From NCBI GenBank assembly GCA_965214705.1, contig OZ243972.1, positions 3,296,001 through 3,360,000 on the forward strand: a stretch of DNA of 64,000 nucleotides. The letters run 5' to 3'. This document shows positions 58,307-64,000 of the stretch, in pieces. A program made the translations under genes and the position numbers. Position 1 is the first letter of the stretch; the number at the start of each line of letters is the position of its first letter. The notes beneath the pieces are model-generated. The model had not been told where the DNA came from. It saw nothing but the letters and a program-made list of their open reading frames with translations, and searched no databases. This DNA comes from Alphaproteobacteria bacterium (GTDB lineage Bacteria > Pseudomonadota > Alphaproteobacteria > UBA828).

Positions 58307-59496
58307 GCGCCCAGCCGCTCAAGGACATCCGGGTTCTCGAATTCGGCCAATTCGTCGCGGCCCCCTACGCGGCCGAGGTCCTGGCTGACCTCGGCGCCGA
58401 GGTGATCAAGGTCGAGCATCCCGATGGCGACGGCATTCGCGGCTGGGGTCCTCATCCGGGTGGCGAGAGCGCCCCCTACATGGCGTTCAATCGGGCCAAG
58501 CGGAGCGTCGCAATCAATTTTCGCAGACCTCATGGCCAGGACATCATCCATCTCCTGTACGACCGCGCGGATGTCGTGATCGAGAACTACCGGCCGGGCG
58601 TGACCGACAAGTACGGCCTCGGACCCAAGGCCGCCCGCGCGCGCAATCCCCGCCTCGTCTACTGCTCGATCTCGGGTTTCGGTCAGCGGGGCGACGGGGC
58701 GGGGCGGCCCGCCTTCGACCTCATCCTGCAAGGCATCACGGGCATGATGGACATGACCGGCGAGGCCGGCCGCGCGCCGGCCAAGGTGCCCGTGCCCATT
58801 GCCGACGGAACTGCGGCCCTGCACGCGACGACGGCGATCCTCGCCGCGCTTCACGAGCGTGAGCGGAGTGGCGAGGGGGCCACCCTCGACGTCTCACTCC
58901 AGGCCTCGACGCTTACATGGATGATGCTCGTCGCCGCCGGCTATTTCGCCGATGGGCGCACACCGGCCCGCCTGGGTTCGGCCCATCCTCTGGCAGCGCC
59001 CTATCAGGCCTTCCGCACCCTCGACGGCTACATCACGATCGCGGCCGGCAACGACCGGCAATGGCAGAAGACCAGCGATGCGCTCGGCCTGGAGGCGGAT
59101 GGGGACCCGCGCTTTGCGAGCAGCAGCGACCGGGCCCGCAATCAGGAAGAGCTCCGCCGCCTCGTCGAGGAGCGGCTCACGACCCGCCCGAGCGCAGCGT
59201 GGCTGCAGGCTCTCAACGAGGCCGGCGTGCCATGCGGTCCGATTCACGGCCTTGCCGAGGCTCTGGAGGATCCCTCCGTGGTGACGCGTGGCCTCGTTGG
59301 TGAGTTCACCCATCCCAAGGCGGGCCGCGTGCGGACCATCGGCAATCCCATCGCCTTCGAGGAGCCCAACCCGCCGCCGGTCCGCTCGCCATTACTCGGC
59401 GAGCACACGGTGGAGGTGCTGGCCGAGCTCGGCTTTGCCCAAGTTGGCACTTTTTCCGACCAGCCGAGCCTGTTCGAGCCAGTTTTGCGGCGCTGA
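58303..59496 (+). CDS. CaiB/BaiF CoA-transferase with IS-derived C-terminus
   Basis: LADLGAEVIKVE, NRAKRS, IENYRPG, LGEHT; sequence from 59438 onward is IS1634 left end. Confidence 0.88.
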   Translation: MSAQPLKDIRVLEFGQFVAAPYAAEVLADLGAEVIKVEHPDGDGIRGWGPHPGGESAPYMAFNRAKRSVAINFRRPHGQDIIHLLYDRADVVIENYRPGVTDKYGLGPKAARARNPRLVYCSISGFGQRGDGAGRPAFDLILQGITGMMDMTGEAGRAPAKVPVPIADGTAALHATTAILAALHERERSGEGATLDVSLQASTLTWMMLVAAGYFADGRTPARLGSAHPLAAPYQAFRTLDGYITIAAGNDRQWQKTSDALGLEADGDPRFASSSDRARNQEELRRLVEERLTTRPSAAWLQALNEAGVPCGPIHGLAEALEDPSVVTRGLVGEFTHPKAGRVRTIGNPIAFEEPNPPPVRSPLLGEHTVEVLAELGFAQVGTFSDQPSLFEPVLRR

Positions 59497-59696
59497 ACCA
59501 CTAGATGTTGGGGTTGGAGGACACCTGAGACCCACATTTGCCATTCGTGGTCCTGGAAGCCAATTGTGGGGCCAGGACTTTGGAGTTGAGTCGATATCCC
59601 TCTTGCCAGATGCCGCGAACGCCGTGTATGCGAAACAGGCATCGCAGAAACGGCGCCGCCATGTACATCAAGGCAACCAGGACACACACCGACAAG
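59438..59696 (+). mobile_element. Truncated copy (left 259 bp) of IS1634 #1
   Basis: Matches the reverse complement of 13486-13744, including IRL and the first 12 transposase codons. Confidence 0.92.
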
Positions 59697-59817
59697 CGCA
59701 CCTTCGGTTCTAATGTACTGACATAGCGTTGCTTTTCCCTCCTGTTCTTGGCCGACAAGGGCGAATTCGATCGCCGTTTTCGCCCCGGCTGCAACAGGAA
59801 GTGCAGGAGGAGAATCC

Positions 59818-60939
59818 ATGGCAACGCTTCGTCTCCACCAAGGCCGCGTCGATGCGCTCAAGCCTCGTAAGTCTGCATACGACATCCGAGACCGGGAACT
59901 CAAGGGCTTCGGCGTCAGGGTTCTGCCCTCGGGCGCCAGGCGCTACTTCATCCATAGCCAGCACGATGGCCGACGGGTCTGGAAGATGCTCGGCAAGGGC
60001 GAGGCCATCGGCGTGGACGAGGCCCGCGAACGGGCCCAGGCCATACTGGCCTCAATACGGGCTGGAAACGACGACGAGACTGCGGCGGTGCCTGACACCC
60101 CGTTCGAGACAGTCGCCGACGAAGTCTTCCGCCGCTACGCCCGGAACTGGAAGCCGTCGACGCTCAAGGTCAACCAGGGCTACTACCGCAAGCAGATCCT
60201 GCCTTGGTTCGAGGGACGTCCGATCACCGGCATCACCGCCCGCGACGTTCAGCAGTGGTTCGCATCTCTCCACGAGACCCCCGTAGCTGCGGACCGCTCG
60301 GCCCCCGTCCTGTCCGTCATCATGCGCCAGGCCGAGGTCTACGGCTACCGGCCCGAGGGGACAAACCCTTGCGCGGGCATCAAGCGATACCGGCGCCAGG
60401 GGCGCGAGCGCTTCCTCTCGACGGCCGAAGTCAGCCGGCTGGGCTCGGTGCTGGCGAGCCATGAGGCGGGCCACCCGCAGGCTGTGGCGATCATTCGGCT
60501 GCTGCTGCTCACCGGATGCCGCAAGGGCGAGATCGTATCCTTGAAGTGGCGCGACTACCGCGAGGGCAAGCTGTTCCTCCCCGATAGCAAGGTCGGGCCG
60601 CGCACGGTCTGGCTCTCCTCCCCCGCGCGCGCCATCCTCGACGGCCTGCCTCGCACTGCCGTCTGGGTCTTCCCCTCGCCAAGGAACGGCCTCCTGCATG
60701 CAGCGTCGGTTGGCAGCGTCTGGCATCGTGTGAGGGAAGAAGCTGACCTGCACGATGTCCGCCTTCACGATCTCCGACATACGCATGCCAGCATCGCGCT
60801 GGCGCAGGGCGAGACGGTGCTGACCATCGGCCGGCTTCTCGGACACCGCAATCCGGCGACGACGCTGAAGTACATCCACCTGTCCGACGCCATGGTGCGC
60901 GAGGCGGTGGACGTTGTCGGCGCAGCCCTCGAGGGTTGA
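59818..60939 (+). CDS. Arm-domain tyrosine integrase A
   Basis: DRELKGFGVRV, TGCRKGE, SKVG, HDLRH, LGH...LKY; RBS AGGAGG. Confidence 0.93.
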   Translation: MATLRLHQGRVDALKPRKSAYDIRDRELKGFGVRVLPSGARRYFIHSQHDGRRVWKMLGKGEAIGVDEARERAQAILASIRAGNDDETAAVPDTPFETVADEVFRRYARNWKPSTLKVNQGYYRKQILPWFEGRPITGITARDVQQWFASLHETPVAADRSAPVLSVIMRQAEVYGYRPEGTNPCAGIKRYRRQGRERFLSTAEVSRLGSVLASHEAGHPQAVAIIRLLLLTGCRKGEIVSLKWRDYREGKLFLPDSKVGPRTVWLSSPARAILDGLPRTAVWVFPSPRNGLLHAASVGSVWHRVREEADLHDVRLHDLRHTHASIALAQGETVLTIGRLLGHRNPATTLKYIHLSDAMVREAVDVVGAALEG

Positions 60940-60942
60940 TCC

Positions 60943-62085
60943 GTGGCCGTGAAGAGGAGGCGTCTGACTGACGCAAGTATCGCGAAGCTGACGCCGGCGG
61001 CCCGCGAGTATACCGTTTGGGACACGCGCCATGCGGGTCTCGGCGTTCGGGTGCGGCCGTCGGGGCACCGGGGCTTCGTATACTGGCGGAAGGGCGAGGA
61101 CAGTGCGCGCAGGATCACGCTCGGGCCTGCGTCGTTGATGAAGATCGAGGAGGCGCGCAGCCAGTGCGTCTCCATCGAGAGCGGCGCACGATCCGGCCAG
61201 GCGCGGCGCGACAAGGTGCCCACCTTCGAGGAATTTGTCGCGGGTCCGGGGCGGACGTGTTTCGAGCGGGGCAAGCCGTCGACGCGGAAAGTCTTTGCCA
61301 GGATCGTCTCCGTGCGACTGCTGCCCGCCTTCGGCTCGTTGCCGCTGGACCGGATCACCCGCGCCGATGTGACCCGCTGGTTCGACGAATGCAGCCGGAC
61401 CACGCCGGGCGCGGCCAACAAGGCGTTGAACCTGCTCAGCCGGGTTCTCAATCATGCGATCGTCTGCGGCCATATCCAGGCGAACCCCGCGCGTGGCATC
61501 AAGCGGAACCCCGGTGCCAAGCTCACCCGCTTCTTGTCGCGCGAGGAAGTCCGCCGACTTCATCACGCCCTGGATCGCCACGATCACGCGCGGCCGTCGC
61601 GCGCGCGACAGGCGGACGTCATCCGTCTTCTCTTGCTCACCGGCTGCCGGAAGAGCGAAATCCTGACTCTGCGCTGGCAGGACGTGGACGGGGACACGCT
61701 CAATCTGATCGATGCGAAGACCGGGCCGCGGCGGGTTTTTCTGAACGTGCAGGCTCGTGCCATTCTGGAGCGCCAGTCGCGCTCGGAGAGCGCCTACGTC
61801 TTCCCTGCGCCGTCGAACCCCGGTCGTCCTCTTTCGCATCACCTACCGCTCTGGCATTCTGTGCGAAGGGAAGCCGGGATCGAGGATGTGCGGATTCACG
61901 ACCTCAGACACACGTTCGCCAGCCATGCAGTCCTGCGAGGCATCCCGCTGCCGGTCGTCTCCCGCCTGCTTGGCCACAAGAGACCAAGCATGACACTGCG
62001 TTATGCCCACGTGGGTGATCGGGAAACCGAGGCAGCGGCCGAACGCATCGGTGCGGCCATCGCGCGGGCGTTGAGTGATCGGTAA
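60943..62085 (+). CDS. Arm-domain tyrosine integrase B
   Basis: WDTRHAGLGVRV, TGCRKSE, AKTG, HDLRH, LGH...LRY; 3 bp after the integrase A stop. Confidence 0.93.
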   Translation: MAVKRRRLTDASIAKLTPAAREYTVWDTRHAGLGVRVRPSGHRGFVYWRKGEDSARRITLGPASLMKIEEARSQCVSIESGARSGQARRDKVPTFEEFVAGPGRTCFERGKPSTRKVFARIVSVRLLPAFGSLPLDRITRADVTRWFDECSRTTPGAANKALNLLSRVLNHAIVCGHIQANPARGIKRNPGAKLTRFLSREEVRRLHHALDRHDHARPSRARQADVIRLLLLTGCRKSEILTLRWQDVDGDTLNLIDAKTGPRRVFLNVQARAILERQSRSESAYVFPAPSNPGRPLSHHLPLWHSVRREAGIEDVRIHDLRHTFASHAVLRGIPLPVVSRLLGHKRPSMTLRYAHVGDRETEAAAERIGAAIARALSDR

Positions 62086-62199
62086 GCGGTACGCGGACAC
62101 CATACCGGAATCTGGGTTGACTACGACGGGGACTTGTTGAGGCCAGCGCCGCAACGGTTAAGTTTGCGCCGATTTCCGGGCATTTTCACGGAAACAAGA

Positions 62200-62411
62200 G
62201 GCTCATTTCGTGAAACGTAGGCATCCCAGACTGTCGCCAGCAGCGGGGTACGCTTGTTTCGCGCCGGCAGGGGTTGAACCAACAGCTTTTTCGGGGCTTT
62301 ATGAGGCTTCCCATGCGTCGATCCAGGCAACCGCAGAGAAAGGCACCCATAAGCTAACCGCCCGTTATTACTGGATTTTTCCGTTCATGCCTACATTTCA
62401 CGAAATGAGCC
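62200..62411. mobile_element. 212-bp MITE, family unassigned
   Basis: 25-bp IRs GGCTCATTTCGTGAAACGTAGGCAT / ATGCCTACATTTCACGAAATGAGCC (1 mismatch); flanks AAACAAGA / AAACAAAA. Confidence 0.78.
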
Positions 62412-62418
62412 AAACAAA

Positions 62419-64000
62419 ATGGTGATGACGGCGGTTGAGGCGTATTTCGCCGATCTGCGGCGGGTGCGCGCATCGGGCGGGGCGACCGGGGAGCGGTCGC
62501 TCTACGCCCCGCTCGCGAACCTGTTGAACGCCGTCGGCGTGACGCTCAAGCCGAAAGTGTTCTGCGTCGGGGAACTCGCCGACCAAGGCGTCGGCCATCC
62601 CGATTTCGGCCTTTACGCAGCGAAACAGGTTCAGAAGGGCCGGCCGCGCGAGGGGCAGACGCCGGAGGGCGGCGTGGTTGAAGTCAAGGCTGCCGGAGAC
62701 GACGCCTGGCTCACGGCTTCGGGCGATCAGGTCAGCCGTTACTGGGGCCGCTATCGACTGGTGTTGGTGACCAACACACGCGACTTCGTGCTGGTAGGCG
62801 AGGATGCGGCGGGCCGCCCGGCGCGGCTGGAGACGTTCCGACTGGCGGACAGCGTGGACAGCTTCCACCGCAAGTTGGAGAAGCCTCGCGCGTTCGCCGG
62901 AGAAGTCGGCGCGGGTCTTGCCGAATATCTCGCCCGCGCGCTGTCGCATCGTGCGGCGCTTGCCGAGCCGAAGGACCTGGCGTGGCTGCTCGCCTCCTAC
63001 GCCCGCGACGGGCTCGCGCGTGTCGAGGCGGCGGGCGACGCGCCGCAGCTTGCGGCGGTGCGCAAGGCGCTCGAAGAAGCGCTCGGCGTCCGCTTCGAGG
63101 GCGAGCGGGGCGCGCGGTTCTTCCGCTCGACGCTGGTGCAGACGCTGTTCTACGGCGTCTTCTCCGCCTGGGTGTTGTGGGCGCGGCAACTGTCACCGCC
63201 GATGGACGCATTCGACTGGCGCACGGCGGTCTGGCATCTGCGCGCGCCGGTGCTACGGGCCTTGTTCCAGCAACTGTCCGATCCCGGACGATTGCAACCG
63301 CTCGGGCTGGTCGAAGTACTCGACTGGGCCTCCGCCGCACTCGACCGAGTGGACCGTGCCGCCTTCTTCGCTCGCTTCGCCGAGGGCGAGGCGGTGCCCT
63401 ACTTCTACGAGCCGTTTCTCGAAGCCTTCGACCCCGGCCTGCGCAAGCAGCTCGGGGTGTGGTACACGCCGACGGAAGTGGTCCGCTACATGGTCGCCCG
63501 CGTGGACCGTGCATTGAAAGATGACCTCGACATCGCCGACGGGCTGGCGGCAGAGAACGTCTACGTGCTCGATCCCTGCTGCGGGACCGGGGCCTATCTC
63601 GCCGAAGTGCTGCGCCGCATCGCCGCCAATCTCAAGGGCCGGGGCCTGGGCGCGCTCGCTGGGGCGCGGGTGAAGCAGGCGGCGACAGAACGCGTGTTCG
63701 GCTTCGAGATCATGCCCGCGCCTTTCGTGGTGGCGCATCTGCAAGTCGGGCTCACCATGCAGGACCTCGACACGCCGCTGGTCGATGATGGAGATGAACG
63801 TGCCGGCGTCTTCCTTACCAACGCGCTCACCGGCTGGGAGCCGCGCACAACCAAGCCGCTGCCCTTCCCCGAGCTTGAGCAGGAGCGCGACCGGGCGGAG
63901 CGAGTGAAGCAGGAGACGCCGGTCCTCGTGATCCTCGGCAACCCACCCTACAACGGCTTCGCCGGCATGGCGGTGGACGAGGAGCGAGAGCTGTCCGAAG
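62419..64000 (+). CDS. Fused restriction-modification enzyme (PD-ExK nuclease + N6-adenine methyltransferase; Type IIG/ISP-like), 3' end outside the window
   Basis: Open frame from ATG 62419, absent from the ORF track because it has no stop: HPDFG..VVEVK, GVWYTP, LDPCCGTG, ILGNPPY. Confidence 0.88.
   Translation, partial: MVMTAVEAYFADLRRVRASGGATGERSLYAPLANLLNAVGVTLKPKVFCVGELADQGVGHPDFGLYAAKQVQKGRPREGQTPEGGVVEVKAAGDDAWLTASGDQVSRYWGRYRLVLVTNTRDFVLVGEDAAGRPARLETFRLADSVDSFHRKLEKPRAFAGEVGAGLAEYLARALSHRAALAEPKDLAWLLASYARDGLARVEAAGDAPQLAAVRKALEEALGVRFEGERGARFFRSTLVQTLFYGVFSAWVLWARQLSPPMDAFDWRTAVWHLRAPVLRALFQQLSDPGRLQPLGLVEVLDWASAALDRVDRAAFFARFAEGEAVPYFYEPFLEAFDPGLRKQLGVWYTPTEVVRYMVARVDRALKDDLDIADGLAAENVYVLDPCCGTGAYLAEVLRRIAANLKGRGLGALAGARVKQAATERVFGFEIMPAPFVVAHLQVGLTMQDLDTPLVDDGDERAGVFLTNALTGWEPRTTKPLPFPELEQERDRAERVKQETPVLVILGNPPYNGFAGMAVDEERELSE

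Follow-up and report, generated by a model that had tools for sequence, protein, structure and literature searches.

Two adjacent Arm-type tyrosine integrase genes, intA and intB, form a co-inherited, co-evolving unit and not a chance tandem, and the elements that bear them share conserved ends. This pair probably integrates and excises the members of a family of integrative mobilizable elements (IMEs), working through a 10-bp core, with targeting that would be guided by base pairing and an action that would be heteromeric. The typical integrative island has a single integrase and one fixed site. In the present family a fixed paralogous Arm-type pair stands at no fewer than 33 left ends within a single genome, and is present in other genera and families; its core is merely 10 bp, half of it lineage-specific, a rarely described integration design.

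The integrase pair in the window and across genomes

One copy lies in the 64,000-nt stretch of DNA analysed here (the window), at the left end of a 35.9-kb (35,913 bp) island. The features concerned are:

59438..59696, plus strand: IS piece, the first 259 bp of a 2160-bp insertion sequence (IS) whose limits are shared by 100%-identical copies
59686..59695, plus strand: attL core ACACCGACAA, 10 bp; its second copy, at C1:3391599-3391608, is outside the window
59696..59817, plus strand: left-end non-coding arm, containing the ribosome-binding site of intA and three conserved blocks, G-CGCACCTTCGGTTCTAA, CTGACA and GCTGCAAC
59818-60939, plus strand: intA, 373 aa, Arm-type tyrosine integrase, which the tree places in clade A (30 genes at support 100)
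60722..60731, minus strand: ACACGATGCC inside intA, a site occupied in a sister copy by another family member
60943-62085, plus strand: intB, 380 aa, Arm-type tyrosine integrase, which the tree places in clade B (32 genes at support 100)
62086..62418, no strand: spacer between integrase module and cargo; similarity to other copies ends at about 62073
62419..64000, plus strand: 5' portion of the gene for a Type IIG restriction enzyme-methyltransferase of 1103 aa; the gene ends at C1:3361730

The original prediction, made from the letters of the window, described two diverged paralogous integrases 3 bp apart, each with an Arm domain and a full catalytic set; open reading frames, Pfam matches and alignment all agree with it. 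The genes meet at TGA-TCC-GTG, in the same frame, and their products share 38% identity across an alignment of 374 columns (E 8e-67). Both match PF14659, PF22022 and PF00589, and both are classed as Arm-type by an N-terminal PF13356 (Arm-DNA-bind_3) domain above the cut-off of 27 bits (35.9 in IntA, 28.8 in IntB). The catalytic R, K, H-x-x-R, H and Y are complete in IntA and IntB and are kept genome-wide in 29-30 of the 30 A-type and 31-32 of the 32 B-type copies, so that nearly all 62 copies of the family have all six positions expected of a PF00589 tyrosine recombinase. On the DNA, repeated TGCAAC and CTGACA blocks are the only candidate arm-site features seen.

A census of the source genome retained 97 full-length integrases, leaving out 19 fragments or rows of odd length, and contained 25 intact A-B pairs of the intA-intB family. 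The A clade comprises 26 first-in-pair genes, three solo genes and one beside another A, and the B clade 25 second-in-pair and seven solo genes; subclades of the two trees run parallel, and a B-type sequence, intact or broken, lies downstream of all 30 A-type genes. Order and the spacing of stop, one codon and start are kept in 23 of 26 pairs. Ka for A and Ka for B are correlated (r = 0.94 over 288 comparisons among the 25 pairs, which are not independent of one another), and Ka/Ks has a median of 0.34 in A and 0.32 in B. The expectation that A and B would form co-evolving clades is thus borne out, and the opposite possibility, that homologues usually occur alone, does not hold for A. A second, more distant tandem-pair family (13 pairs) gave no common end when its upstream regions were aligned.

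The pair extends well beyond this genome. A is followed by B at 8 of 10 loci from other genomes, three other families among them, and in metagenomes a search at E <= 1e-60 returned 4324 clusters, labelled "integrase" at most: the family is abundant yet unnamed there. A plasmid collection searched by DNA gave only one weak match, of 168 bases. Islands with adjacent integrases commonly accrete at hot spots (PMC5704250, PMC5587801, in the portions available), which could suggest that two islands of independent origin, with one integrase apiece, were stacked at one spot; the fixed order of the 25 intact pairs, their parallel trees, a single set of ends per pair and the recurrence of the same pair in other genera and families make such an origin exceedingly improbable.

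Element ends, empty targets and the 10-bp core

About 130 bp upstream of the start of all 30 A-type genes is a left junction of the form ACAC[C/G]-N5-N-CGCACCT.CGGT.CTAA, and the sequences to the left of it are unrelated to each other. This pattern occurs 33 times in the source genome; of 20 further genomes in the genus, 13 have it, 1-10 times each. The reversed controls of both searches gave no occurrences. At the other side, the exact 10-mer (ACACC plus five lineage-specific bases) recurs 13.9-94 kb downstream in 11 of the 30 elements; delimitation demanded an exact repeat, and three more candidate end pairs mismatch at one of the five variable bases. Homologous right ends are common to 10 of the 11 delimited elements, and the ends of the unit are thus conserved.

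For 6 of 10 elements tested, empty sites with a single core copy are present in the source genome. Of the occurrences of the 22-mer to the left of the window island, 36 of 39 continue through one core copy into the right flank and are thus empty; counts for the other five elements are 2/5, 85-90/92, 1-7/13, 1/6 and 7-8/10. Such numbers of empty and filled copies of the same targets within one genome provide clean before-and-after junctions for the design of tests.

In the window, the left edge was correctly seen to interrupt an IS and not a tRNA: the 259-bp piece ends at 59696, the next base being 59697, and ARAGORN finds no tRNA in the 64,000 nt. The IS encodes a DDE_Tnp_1 transposase (Pfam) and has about 40 copies in the genome; its remainder (positions 260-2160) continues from C1:3391610, a point 35.9 kb downstream that is beyond the window. 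The element begins GCGCACCTTCGG... and ends ...TTTAGGACC, after which ACACCGACAA follows, 35,913 bp downstream of attL; the same 10-mer is present once in each of 36 intact IS copies. The split IS in turn sits within the 3' end of a gene for a CoA-transferase (Pfam). Integrase genes of the family are targets as well: a sister intA is split by a 39.9-kb element bordered by ACACGATGCC, and the stretches to its two sides match window positions 59432-60731 and 60721-62069.

The two halves of the core, the ACACC side and in the window copy the CGCACCTNCGG side, resemble direct and not inverted repeats, an uncommon arrangement for the core of a tyrosine recombinase that speaks against the mechanism proposed below. 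Near relatives are closer in their five variable bases, in unrelated flanks, than otherwise (Hamming distance 1.77 over 13 pairs versus about 3.6), and they follow relatedness at a Mantel r of 0.19, reached by 2 of 2000 permutations. The same five bases recur within other genomes, and the three closest copies occupy the identical position in different IS copies. The pattern points to homology-guided targeting by the five bases, and the relaxed target choice first proposed for the pair is too simple a description of a core repeated exactly at both ends whose variable bases track lineage. A lineage-specific preference of the proteins would be an alternative cause of five bases shared among close relatives. 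As to where insertions fall, left flanks lie in sequences of at least three copies in 12 of 33 cases versus 55 of 300 random windows, and a strong preference for repeats was set aside on this only twofold excess in a very repeat-rich genome. A 12-bp tandem array beside one right end was likewise dismissed as a recombination footprint; it is found in the empty target copy too and is hence native.

The repeat equals the target sequence wherever an empty site exists, its five variable bases differ between copies and insertions are found at many unrelated places, all of which would also suit a true transposon, for which the 10 bp would be a target-site duplication and ACACC a loose preference, with no matching bases needed in the element. 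Strand exchange by tyrosine recombinases involves no DNA synthesis and leaves targets unduplicated, and in the 13.9-kb member no other nuclease or transposase was matched (8 ORFs there have no Pfam match). Since, in addition, most of the five bases are common to close relatives in unrelated flanks and identical sites are re-used by sibling copies, transposition of this kind is very unlikely, and site-specific recombination through the core is preferred.

Assembled contigs of 17 public runs were compared with the 13.9-kb member and its flanks, and in these contigs neither an excised circle nor a restored site was found. Many short joints typical of repeats were seen; one, which goes back 14,180, is in the flanks and not at the ends, has a side of 32 bases and touches a high-copy IS, and was given no weight.

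Mobilization genes and a proposed mechanism

From left to right, the family has intA-intB, then cargo, then a TrwC/MobF relaxase, with NikA-like genes occupying the right end. Of 12 elements, 7 have a relaxase-like protein and 9 a member of the NikA-like family, the NikA-like matches being sub-threshold (21.6-26.7 bits versus the Pfam cut-off of 27). Clearest is the 13.9-kb member, with TrwC (4.5e-74), MobF (1.2e-75) and three NikA-like ORFs, and with no match to another recombinase or to a type IV secretion system (T4SS). It thus combines its own integrases and a relaxase with an absence of mating-pore genes. Judged by gene content, the family is one of integrative mobilizable elements because its members carry TrwC/MobF relaxase and NikA-like genes, which displaces the earlier picture of a minimal two-gene transposon.

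For the window copy the case is less direct. That no excisionase or conjugation gene is visible stands within the window; beyond base 64000 the statement fails, for the island includes a relaxase-helicase remnant there, with a NikA-like gene at the far end. Of the relaxase, only the helicase portion is retained and the relaxase domain is absent, and the IME label of this copy therefore depends on its relatives. The copy is probably no longer mobilizable; excision may still be possible. A second element is nested inside the island, and its candidate right end does not match at all. The restriction-modification gene predicted to follow the pair is confirmed as a Type IIG ORF from 62419 (models at 1e-85 and 4e-70); it is cargo of the window copy only, with one other similar stretch in the genome (C1:47089-48652, 78% identity).

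In the mechanism proposed here, an element would run from attL through an intA-intB operon, variable cargo and a TrwC/MobF relaxase-helicase to one to three NikA-like ribbon-helix-helix genes, a non-coding right arm of about 330 bp and attR. Recombination would proceed through the core, of which an empty target has one copy and an inserted element one at each end. ACACC would be recognised by the proteins, while the five variable bases would lie within the strand-exchange region and need to match between element and target; each lineage would therefore have its own address, drifting by single steps. IntA and IntB are envisioned as a heteromeric complex like that of XerC and XerD, in which each integrase would handle one half-site or one strand of a core with unlike sides. 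The excised circle could then be moved by a helper conjugation system acting through the relaxase and the NikA-like proteins.

The heteromeric step has a competitor in division of labour, with one integrase performing integration and excision and the other resolving circle multimers, controlling direction or using a second site. Each protein is a complete integrase that could act singly, and in one element pair the A genes are near-identical (Ks 0.09) and the B genes diverged (Ks 0.86), so the genes can be exchanged separately. A Prevotella MTnPi1 copy without the second integrase had a diverged first integrase as well (PMC4755523, in the part available), and the need for both is therefore unsettled there too. 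Weighing on the other side are the conserved order and 3-base spacing, the equal selective constraint on intA and intB, the fact that A is never without B and the asymmetry of the core, of which one side only is conserved in targets; division of labour is accordingly thought unlikely, and joint action of IntA and IntB is the favored reading.

A bolder version is a re-addressable two-integrase system, in which the proteins read ACACC only, the five bases are checked by pairing between element and target, and a single-base change in the core of the element re-aims it. We regard this as conceivable and somewhat doubtful. Were it true, diversified bases would keep about 30 sibling copies from recombining with one another, much as heterospecific lox spacers do, and the colonisation of dozens of sites by one pair, relatives' integrase genes included, would be accounted for. 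Provided that the two proteins are both required and that the five bases do pair, the family would offer a compact natural model for heteromeric tyrosine recombinases on an asymmetric site, as well as for address change by site-specific elements.

Comparison with known systems

XerC and XerD, two paralogous tyrosine recombinases that form a heterotetramer on an asymmetric core, are the working model for IntA and IntB. Xer proteins have no Arm-type domain, act at dif and are encoded by chromosomal housekeeping genes. Identity with XerC/XerD was rejected, as IntA and IntB have an arm domain and reach only 57.3 and 69.9 bits against a XerC cut-off of 335, the NCBIfam Xer models together giving 57-70 bits with cut-offs near 330.

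CTnDOT/NBU-type and P4-type integrases are also Arm-type, with a target in which a short conserved block stands beside a few variable bases of the exchange region. They act as a single integrase, and the variable bases at the two ends of CTnDOT differ after insertion, whereas those of the present family are identical at both ends. This comparison draws on general background, apart from the accessible part of PMC2817482.

Tn554, the strand-biased circularizing elements (SE) and GInts also need more than one tyrosine recombinase and insert at non-tRNA sites (PMC10214605, as far as its available text describes). They combine one ordinary and one large recombinase with extra core genes (TnpC, Tfp/Srap, GinC/D), end in unlike 6-bp "fingerprint" and "footprint" sequences and are putatively non-mobilizable (same source); the elements described here have two ordinary-sized Arm-type integrases, identical 10-bp repeats and a relaxase. 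Membership was rejected, both proteins being of about 375 aa and the end repeats identical 10-mers; accessory genes may still be present among the 8 small ORFs of the 13.9-kb member without a Pfam match. RIT and BIM modules resemble the pair as conserved multi-gene recombinase modules found by synteny, mostly in Alpha- and Betaproteobacteria (PMC3414803, in part). RIT has three recombinases (same source) and is excluded by the two adjacent genes here, followed by cargo; BIM, a single recombinase plus an unrelated second protein, does not fit either.

Closest are MTnPi1-3 of Prevotella intermedia, mobilizable transposons of the "Tyr duo" type (PMC4755523; reviewed in PMC5704250; both in the parts available), and in light of these the claim of an undescribed system was too strong. 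As reported there, MTnPi1-3 have two tandem tyrosine-recombinase genes at one end and a mobilization module built around a relaxase; their att is short (about 11 bp, compared with 10 bp here) and they occur in several copies per genome in different places, with insertion in another element's integrase gene also known. In the present family, too, two tandem genes replace the single integrase. By their published description, MTnPi1-3 differ in that they belong to another phylum, have a primase, and have excision circles shown by PCR; here both integrases are Arm-type, with a MobF relaxase and NikA-like genes. The distant relationship and lack of significant mutual homology given for Tyr duo integrases (PMC5704250), and for those of MTnPi1-3 as no significant homology (PMC4755523), does not extend to IntA and IntB, which are 38%-identical paralogues. 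A literature search, with most subscription journals outside its coverage, found no description of such an Arm-type pair. The present family is a variant of the already published Tyr duo mobilizable elements, and not a new kind of system.

Two integrase genes forming one unit

intA and intB form one unit. The original prediction described adjacent Arm-type integrases of 373 and 380 aa, a left edge in an insertion sequence (IS) rather than a tRNA, and a following restriction-modification gene. ORFs, domain matches and the IS fragment directly upstream bear this out, and a search for tRNA genes within the window found none.

59438-59696: first 259 bp of a 2160-bp IS of about 40 copies, identical in sequence
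59818-60939, + strand: intA, ORF of 373 aa
60943-62085, + strand: intB, ORF of 380 aa
ORF from 62419, downstream of intB: Type IIG restriction enzyme-methyltransferase, 1103 aa

IntA and IntB are 38% identical; both match the Arm DNA-binding domain (PF13356) above cut-off, and each matches SAM-like and central integrase domains and catalytic PF00589. Their genes share one frame, with a stop and a single codon between (TGA TCC GTG), and readthrough at this stop (window 60937-60945), if it occurred, would be predicted to give a fused double integrase. A same-frame stop (mostly TGA) plus one codon also separates 22 other pairs in the genome, and 23 of 26 tandems of this family (family I) have the arrangement stop, one codon, ATG or GTG.

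The assembly searched comprises 7.92 Mb in three contigs, C1 to C3, the window being C1:3296001-3360000. A protein search of all genome ORFs of at least 150 aa returned 150 related ORFs, from which the 97 with a 330-420-residue match were kept for a tree, leaving out 19 fragments or odd lengths and rows below 150 bits. Among these 97 integrases, 39 take the first and 39 the second place in a same-strand tandem; the other 19 are solo. The co-evolving clades proposed as a check are present: A-type genes form one clade (support 100; 26 first, 3 solo and 1 behind another A, 30 rows in all) and B-type genes another (support 100; 32 rows, 25 second and 7 solo), with subclades that mirror each other and Ka values that correlate (r = 0.94 over 288 non-independent comparisons). 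Broken or interrupted B sequence lies downstream of all three A "solos" and of the A-A case (tblastn), and 25 A-B pairs are intact. Median Ka/Ks is 0.34 for A and 0.32 for B, and the complete set of six catalytic positions is retained by 29-30 of 30 A sequences and 31-32 of 32 B sequences. Between the elements at C1:384054 and C3:284471, Ks is 0.09 for intA but 0.86 for intB; such near-identical intA beside diverged intB indicates that exchange at times affects one gene without the other.

A second, deeper family comprises 13 tandem Arm-type integrase pairs that share about 40% identity with IntA and IntB; their upstream regions differ, some with repeated TACGCT blocks. Examples are:

C2:32990-35311: second-family pair
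C2:472769-475138: second-family pair
C3:303641-305947: second-family pair

Ends, empty sites and a proposed mode of insertion

Similarity among copies starts near 59685 and stops near 62073. All 30 A genes share a left junction, ACAC[C/G], five variable bases, one base and CGCACCT.CGGT.CTAA, and the sequence to its left is unrelated among them. The window's element splits the 2160-bp IS, which has terminal inverted repeats, a 588-aa DDE_Tnp_1 transposase and about 40 further genome copies at 99.7-100% identity. The IS itself lies within the 3' end of the gene for a CoA-transferase and changes the last residues of that protein; IS positions 260-2160 continue at C1:3391610, beyond the window. 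The left junction reads ...GGACAC-ACACCGACAA-GCGCACC..., the right ...TTTAGGACC-ACACCGACAA-GGCCGG..., and the unsplit IS at the same place ...GGACAC-ACACCGACAA-GGCCGG...; set against the intact IS, the split IS and its two junctions therefore delimit an element of 35,913 bp core to core, mostly beyond the window, the core being the 10-bp repeat (ACACC plus five variable bases) at both ends.

Other ends were located by looking downstream of each left end for its own 10-mer: for 11 of 30 left ends it recurs 13.9-94 kb away, in a search that demanded identity and cannot tell how often two ends differ. Homologous right ends, finishing ...AGGACC, ...TAGTGC or ...AGGTTC, are present in 10 of those 11. 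Three more candidate end pairs, paired by orientation and distance alone, mismatch at one of the five bases, and the candidate right end of the nested copy does not match. Empty sites, in which left flank, single core and right flank are contiguous, exist in the same genome for 6 of 10 elements (36/39, 2/5, 85-90/92, 1 exact (7 within three mismatches)/13, 1/6 and 7-8/10). Two members are inserted inside other members' integrase genes (C1:364537-382350 and C1:597598-655655): one splits an intB within codons for EYTVWD, at the site ACACCGTCTG, and one splits intA of the sister copy at the site ACACGATGCC, which the window's own, intact intA has at 60722-60731.

The genome is repeat-rich (55 of 300 random 300-bp windows have at least three copies at 90% identity). 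A left end at C1:4139685, 30 kb from the C1 end, and a right end at C3:3026548, 16 kb from the C3 end, share the core ACACCTTAAC, neither with another partner; in the actual chromosome these two contig ends may be contiguous.

The integrase pair is the sole recombinase module, with ends and core as described. By the chemistry of tyrosine recombinases, insertion would be conservative: a circle with a single core would recombine with the identical 10 bases in the chromosome, which would leave the core at either end with no DNA synthesis needed. ACACC is constant in targets and elements, and no other target feature is conserved. From sequence comparison, we read the five variable bases as behaving like an address that travels with the element. 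When 430 pairs of elements in unrelated flanks are compared, the 13 pairs with IntA distance below 0.05 differ at 1.77 of five positions and more distant ones at about 3.6; five-base likeness follows IntA distance with a Mantel r of 0.19, reached by 2 of 2000 permutations. The nearest relatives of the window's copy occupy the same position in other IS copies, another trio of elements has one target in common, and other genomes of the genus use the same five bases repeatedly. The five bases would pair where strands are exchanged, and one base would slip now and then; their sharing among close relatives may instead reflect a lineage-specific preference of the protein. Fixed order and coupling, equal constraint, A never without B and unlike core halves suggest that A and B may work together as a heteromer.

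Mobility genes, cargo and spread

Clustering of 352 ORFs from 12 delimited elements gave three shared families: the integrases (12/12), a small ribbon-helix-helix protein near the right end (9/12) and a protein of 1600-1800 aa (7/12). In one element, of 13.9 kb, this large protein is identified as a TrwC/MobF relaxase-helicase; three ORFs at the right end have weak NikA-like matches, the other eight are without match, and no mating-pore gene or further recombinase was seen. Such a gene content is that of an integrative mobilizable element (IME); the two-integrase transposon originally proposed does not fit relatives that carry a relaxase.

The window's copy is decayed, with only a 727-aa helicase part of its relaxase left and IS66-type and other IS copies inside; its single NikA-like gene lies 330 bp short of the right end. 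It also holds:

C1:3379140-3381464, opposite strand: second integrase pair
C1:3384868-3390396 (L010:8868-14396): Hsp70-GrpE-DnaJ-TPR cargo cluster

The cluster encodes a 926-aa TPR protein, a short DnaJ-domain protein, a GrpE-like protein and Hsp70, and PADLOC gave no match to it beyond one faint one. In an ORF at L009:8050-9066, a DruA-like N-terminal part is joined to a DDE_Tnp_1-associated domain, and IS66-type elements interrupt the ORF.

IntA relatives at E <= 1e-40 occur in 20/20 other genomes searched from the genus and 0/4 from other genera of the family; at E <= 1e-85 they occur in 4/400 other genomes of the class, in three families. Of 10 loci retrieved from other genomes, 8 show a B-type gene directly after the A-type one in order. 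Left junctions number 33 in this genome, the extreme, and 0-10 in others of the genus. Public records are titled solely as uncultured Alphaproteobacteria, except for one short contig assigned to Dehalococcoidia (DAOUKW010000053.1, 8.9 kb), whose A-B pair is 78% identical and reflects cross-phylum transfer or else mistaken binning. In a large protein collection, 4324 clusters reach E <= 1e-60, at most named "integrase".

Relation to known recombinase systems

Solved structures include just remote relatives of these integrases. Xer, RIT, BIM, Tn554, SE and GInt were considered as identities, and each fails defining features. In literature that covered few subscription journals, no description turned up of a module pairing two Arm-type integrases. 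A "Tyr duo" class of IME with two tandem tyrosine recombinases is represented by MTnPi1-3 of Prevotella intermedia (PMC5704250), which carry a relaxase and primase, have att sequences of about 11 bp, occur in multiple copies per genome and form circles detected by PCR, and of which a copy without the second integrase did not excise (PMC4755523). As described there, MTnPi1-3 are the nearest functional precedent for the pair, but no homology between their two proteins is detectable, and their host belongs to another phylum. The finding is real and more extensive than was visible from the window alone; rather than the predicted "undescribed system", it is a new form within a kind already known though little studied, the "Tyr duo".
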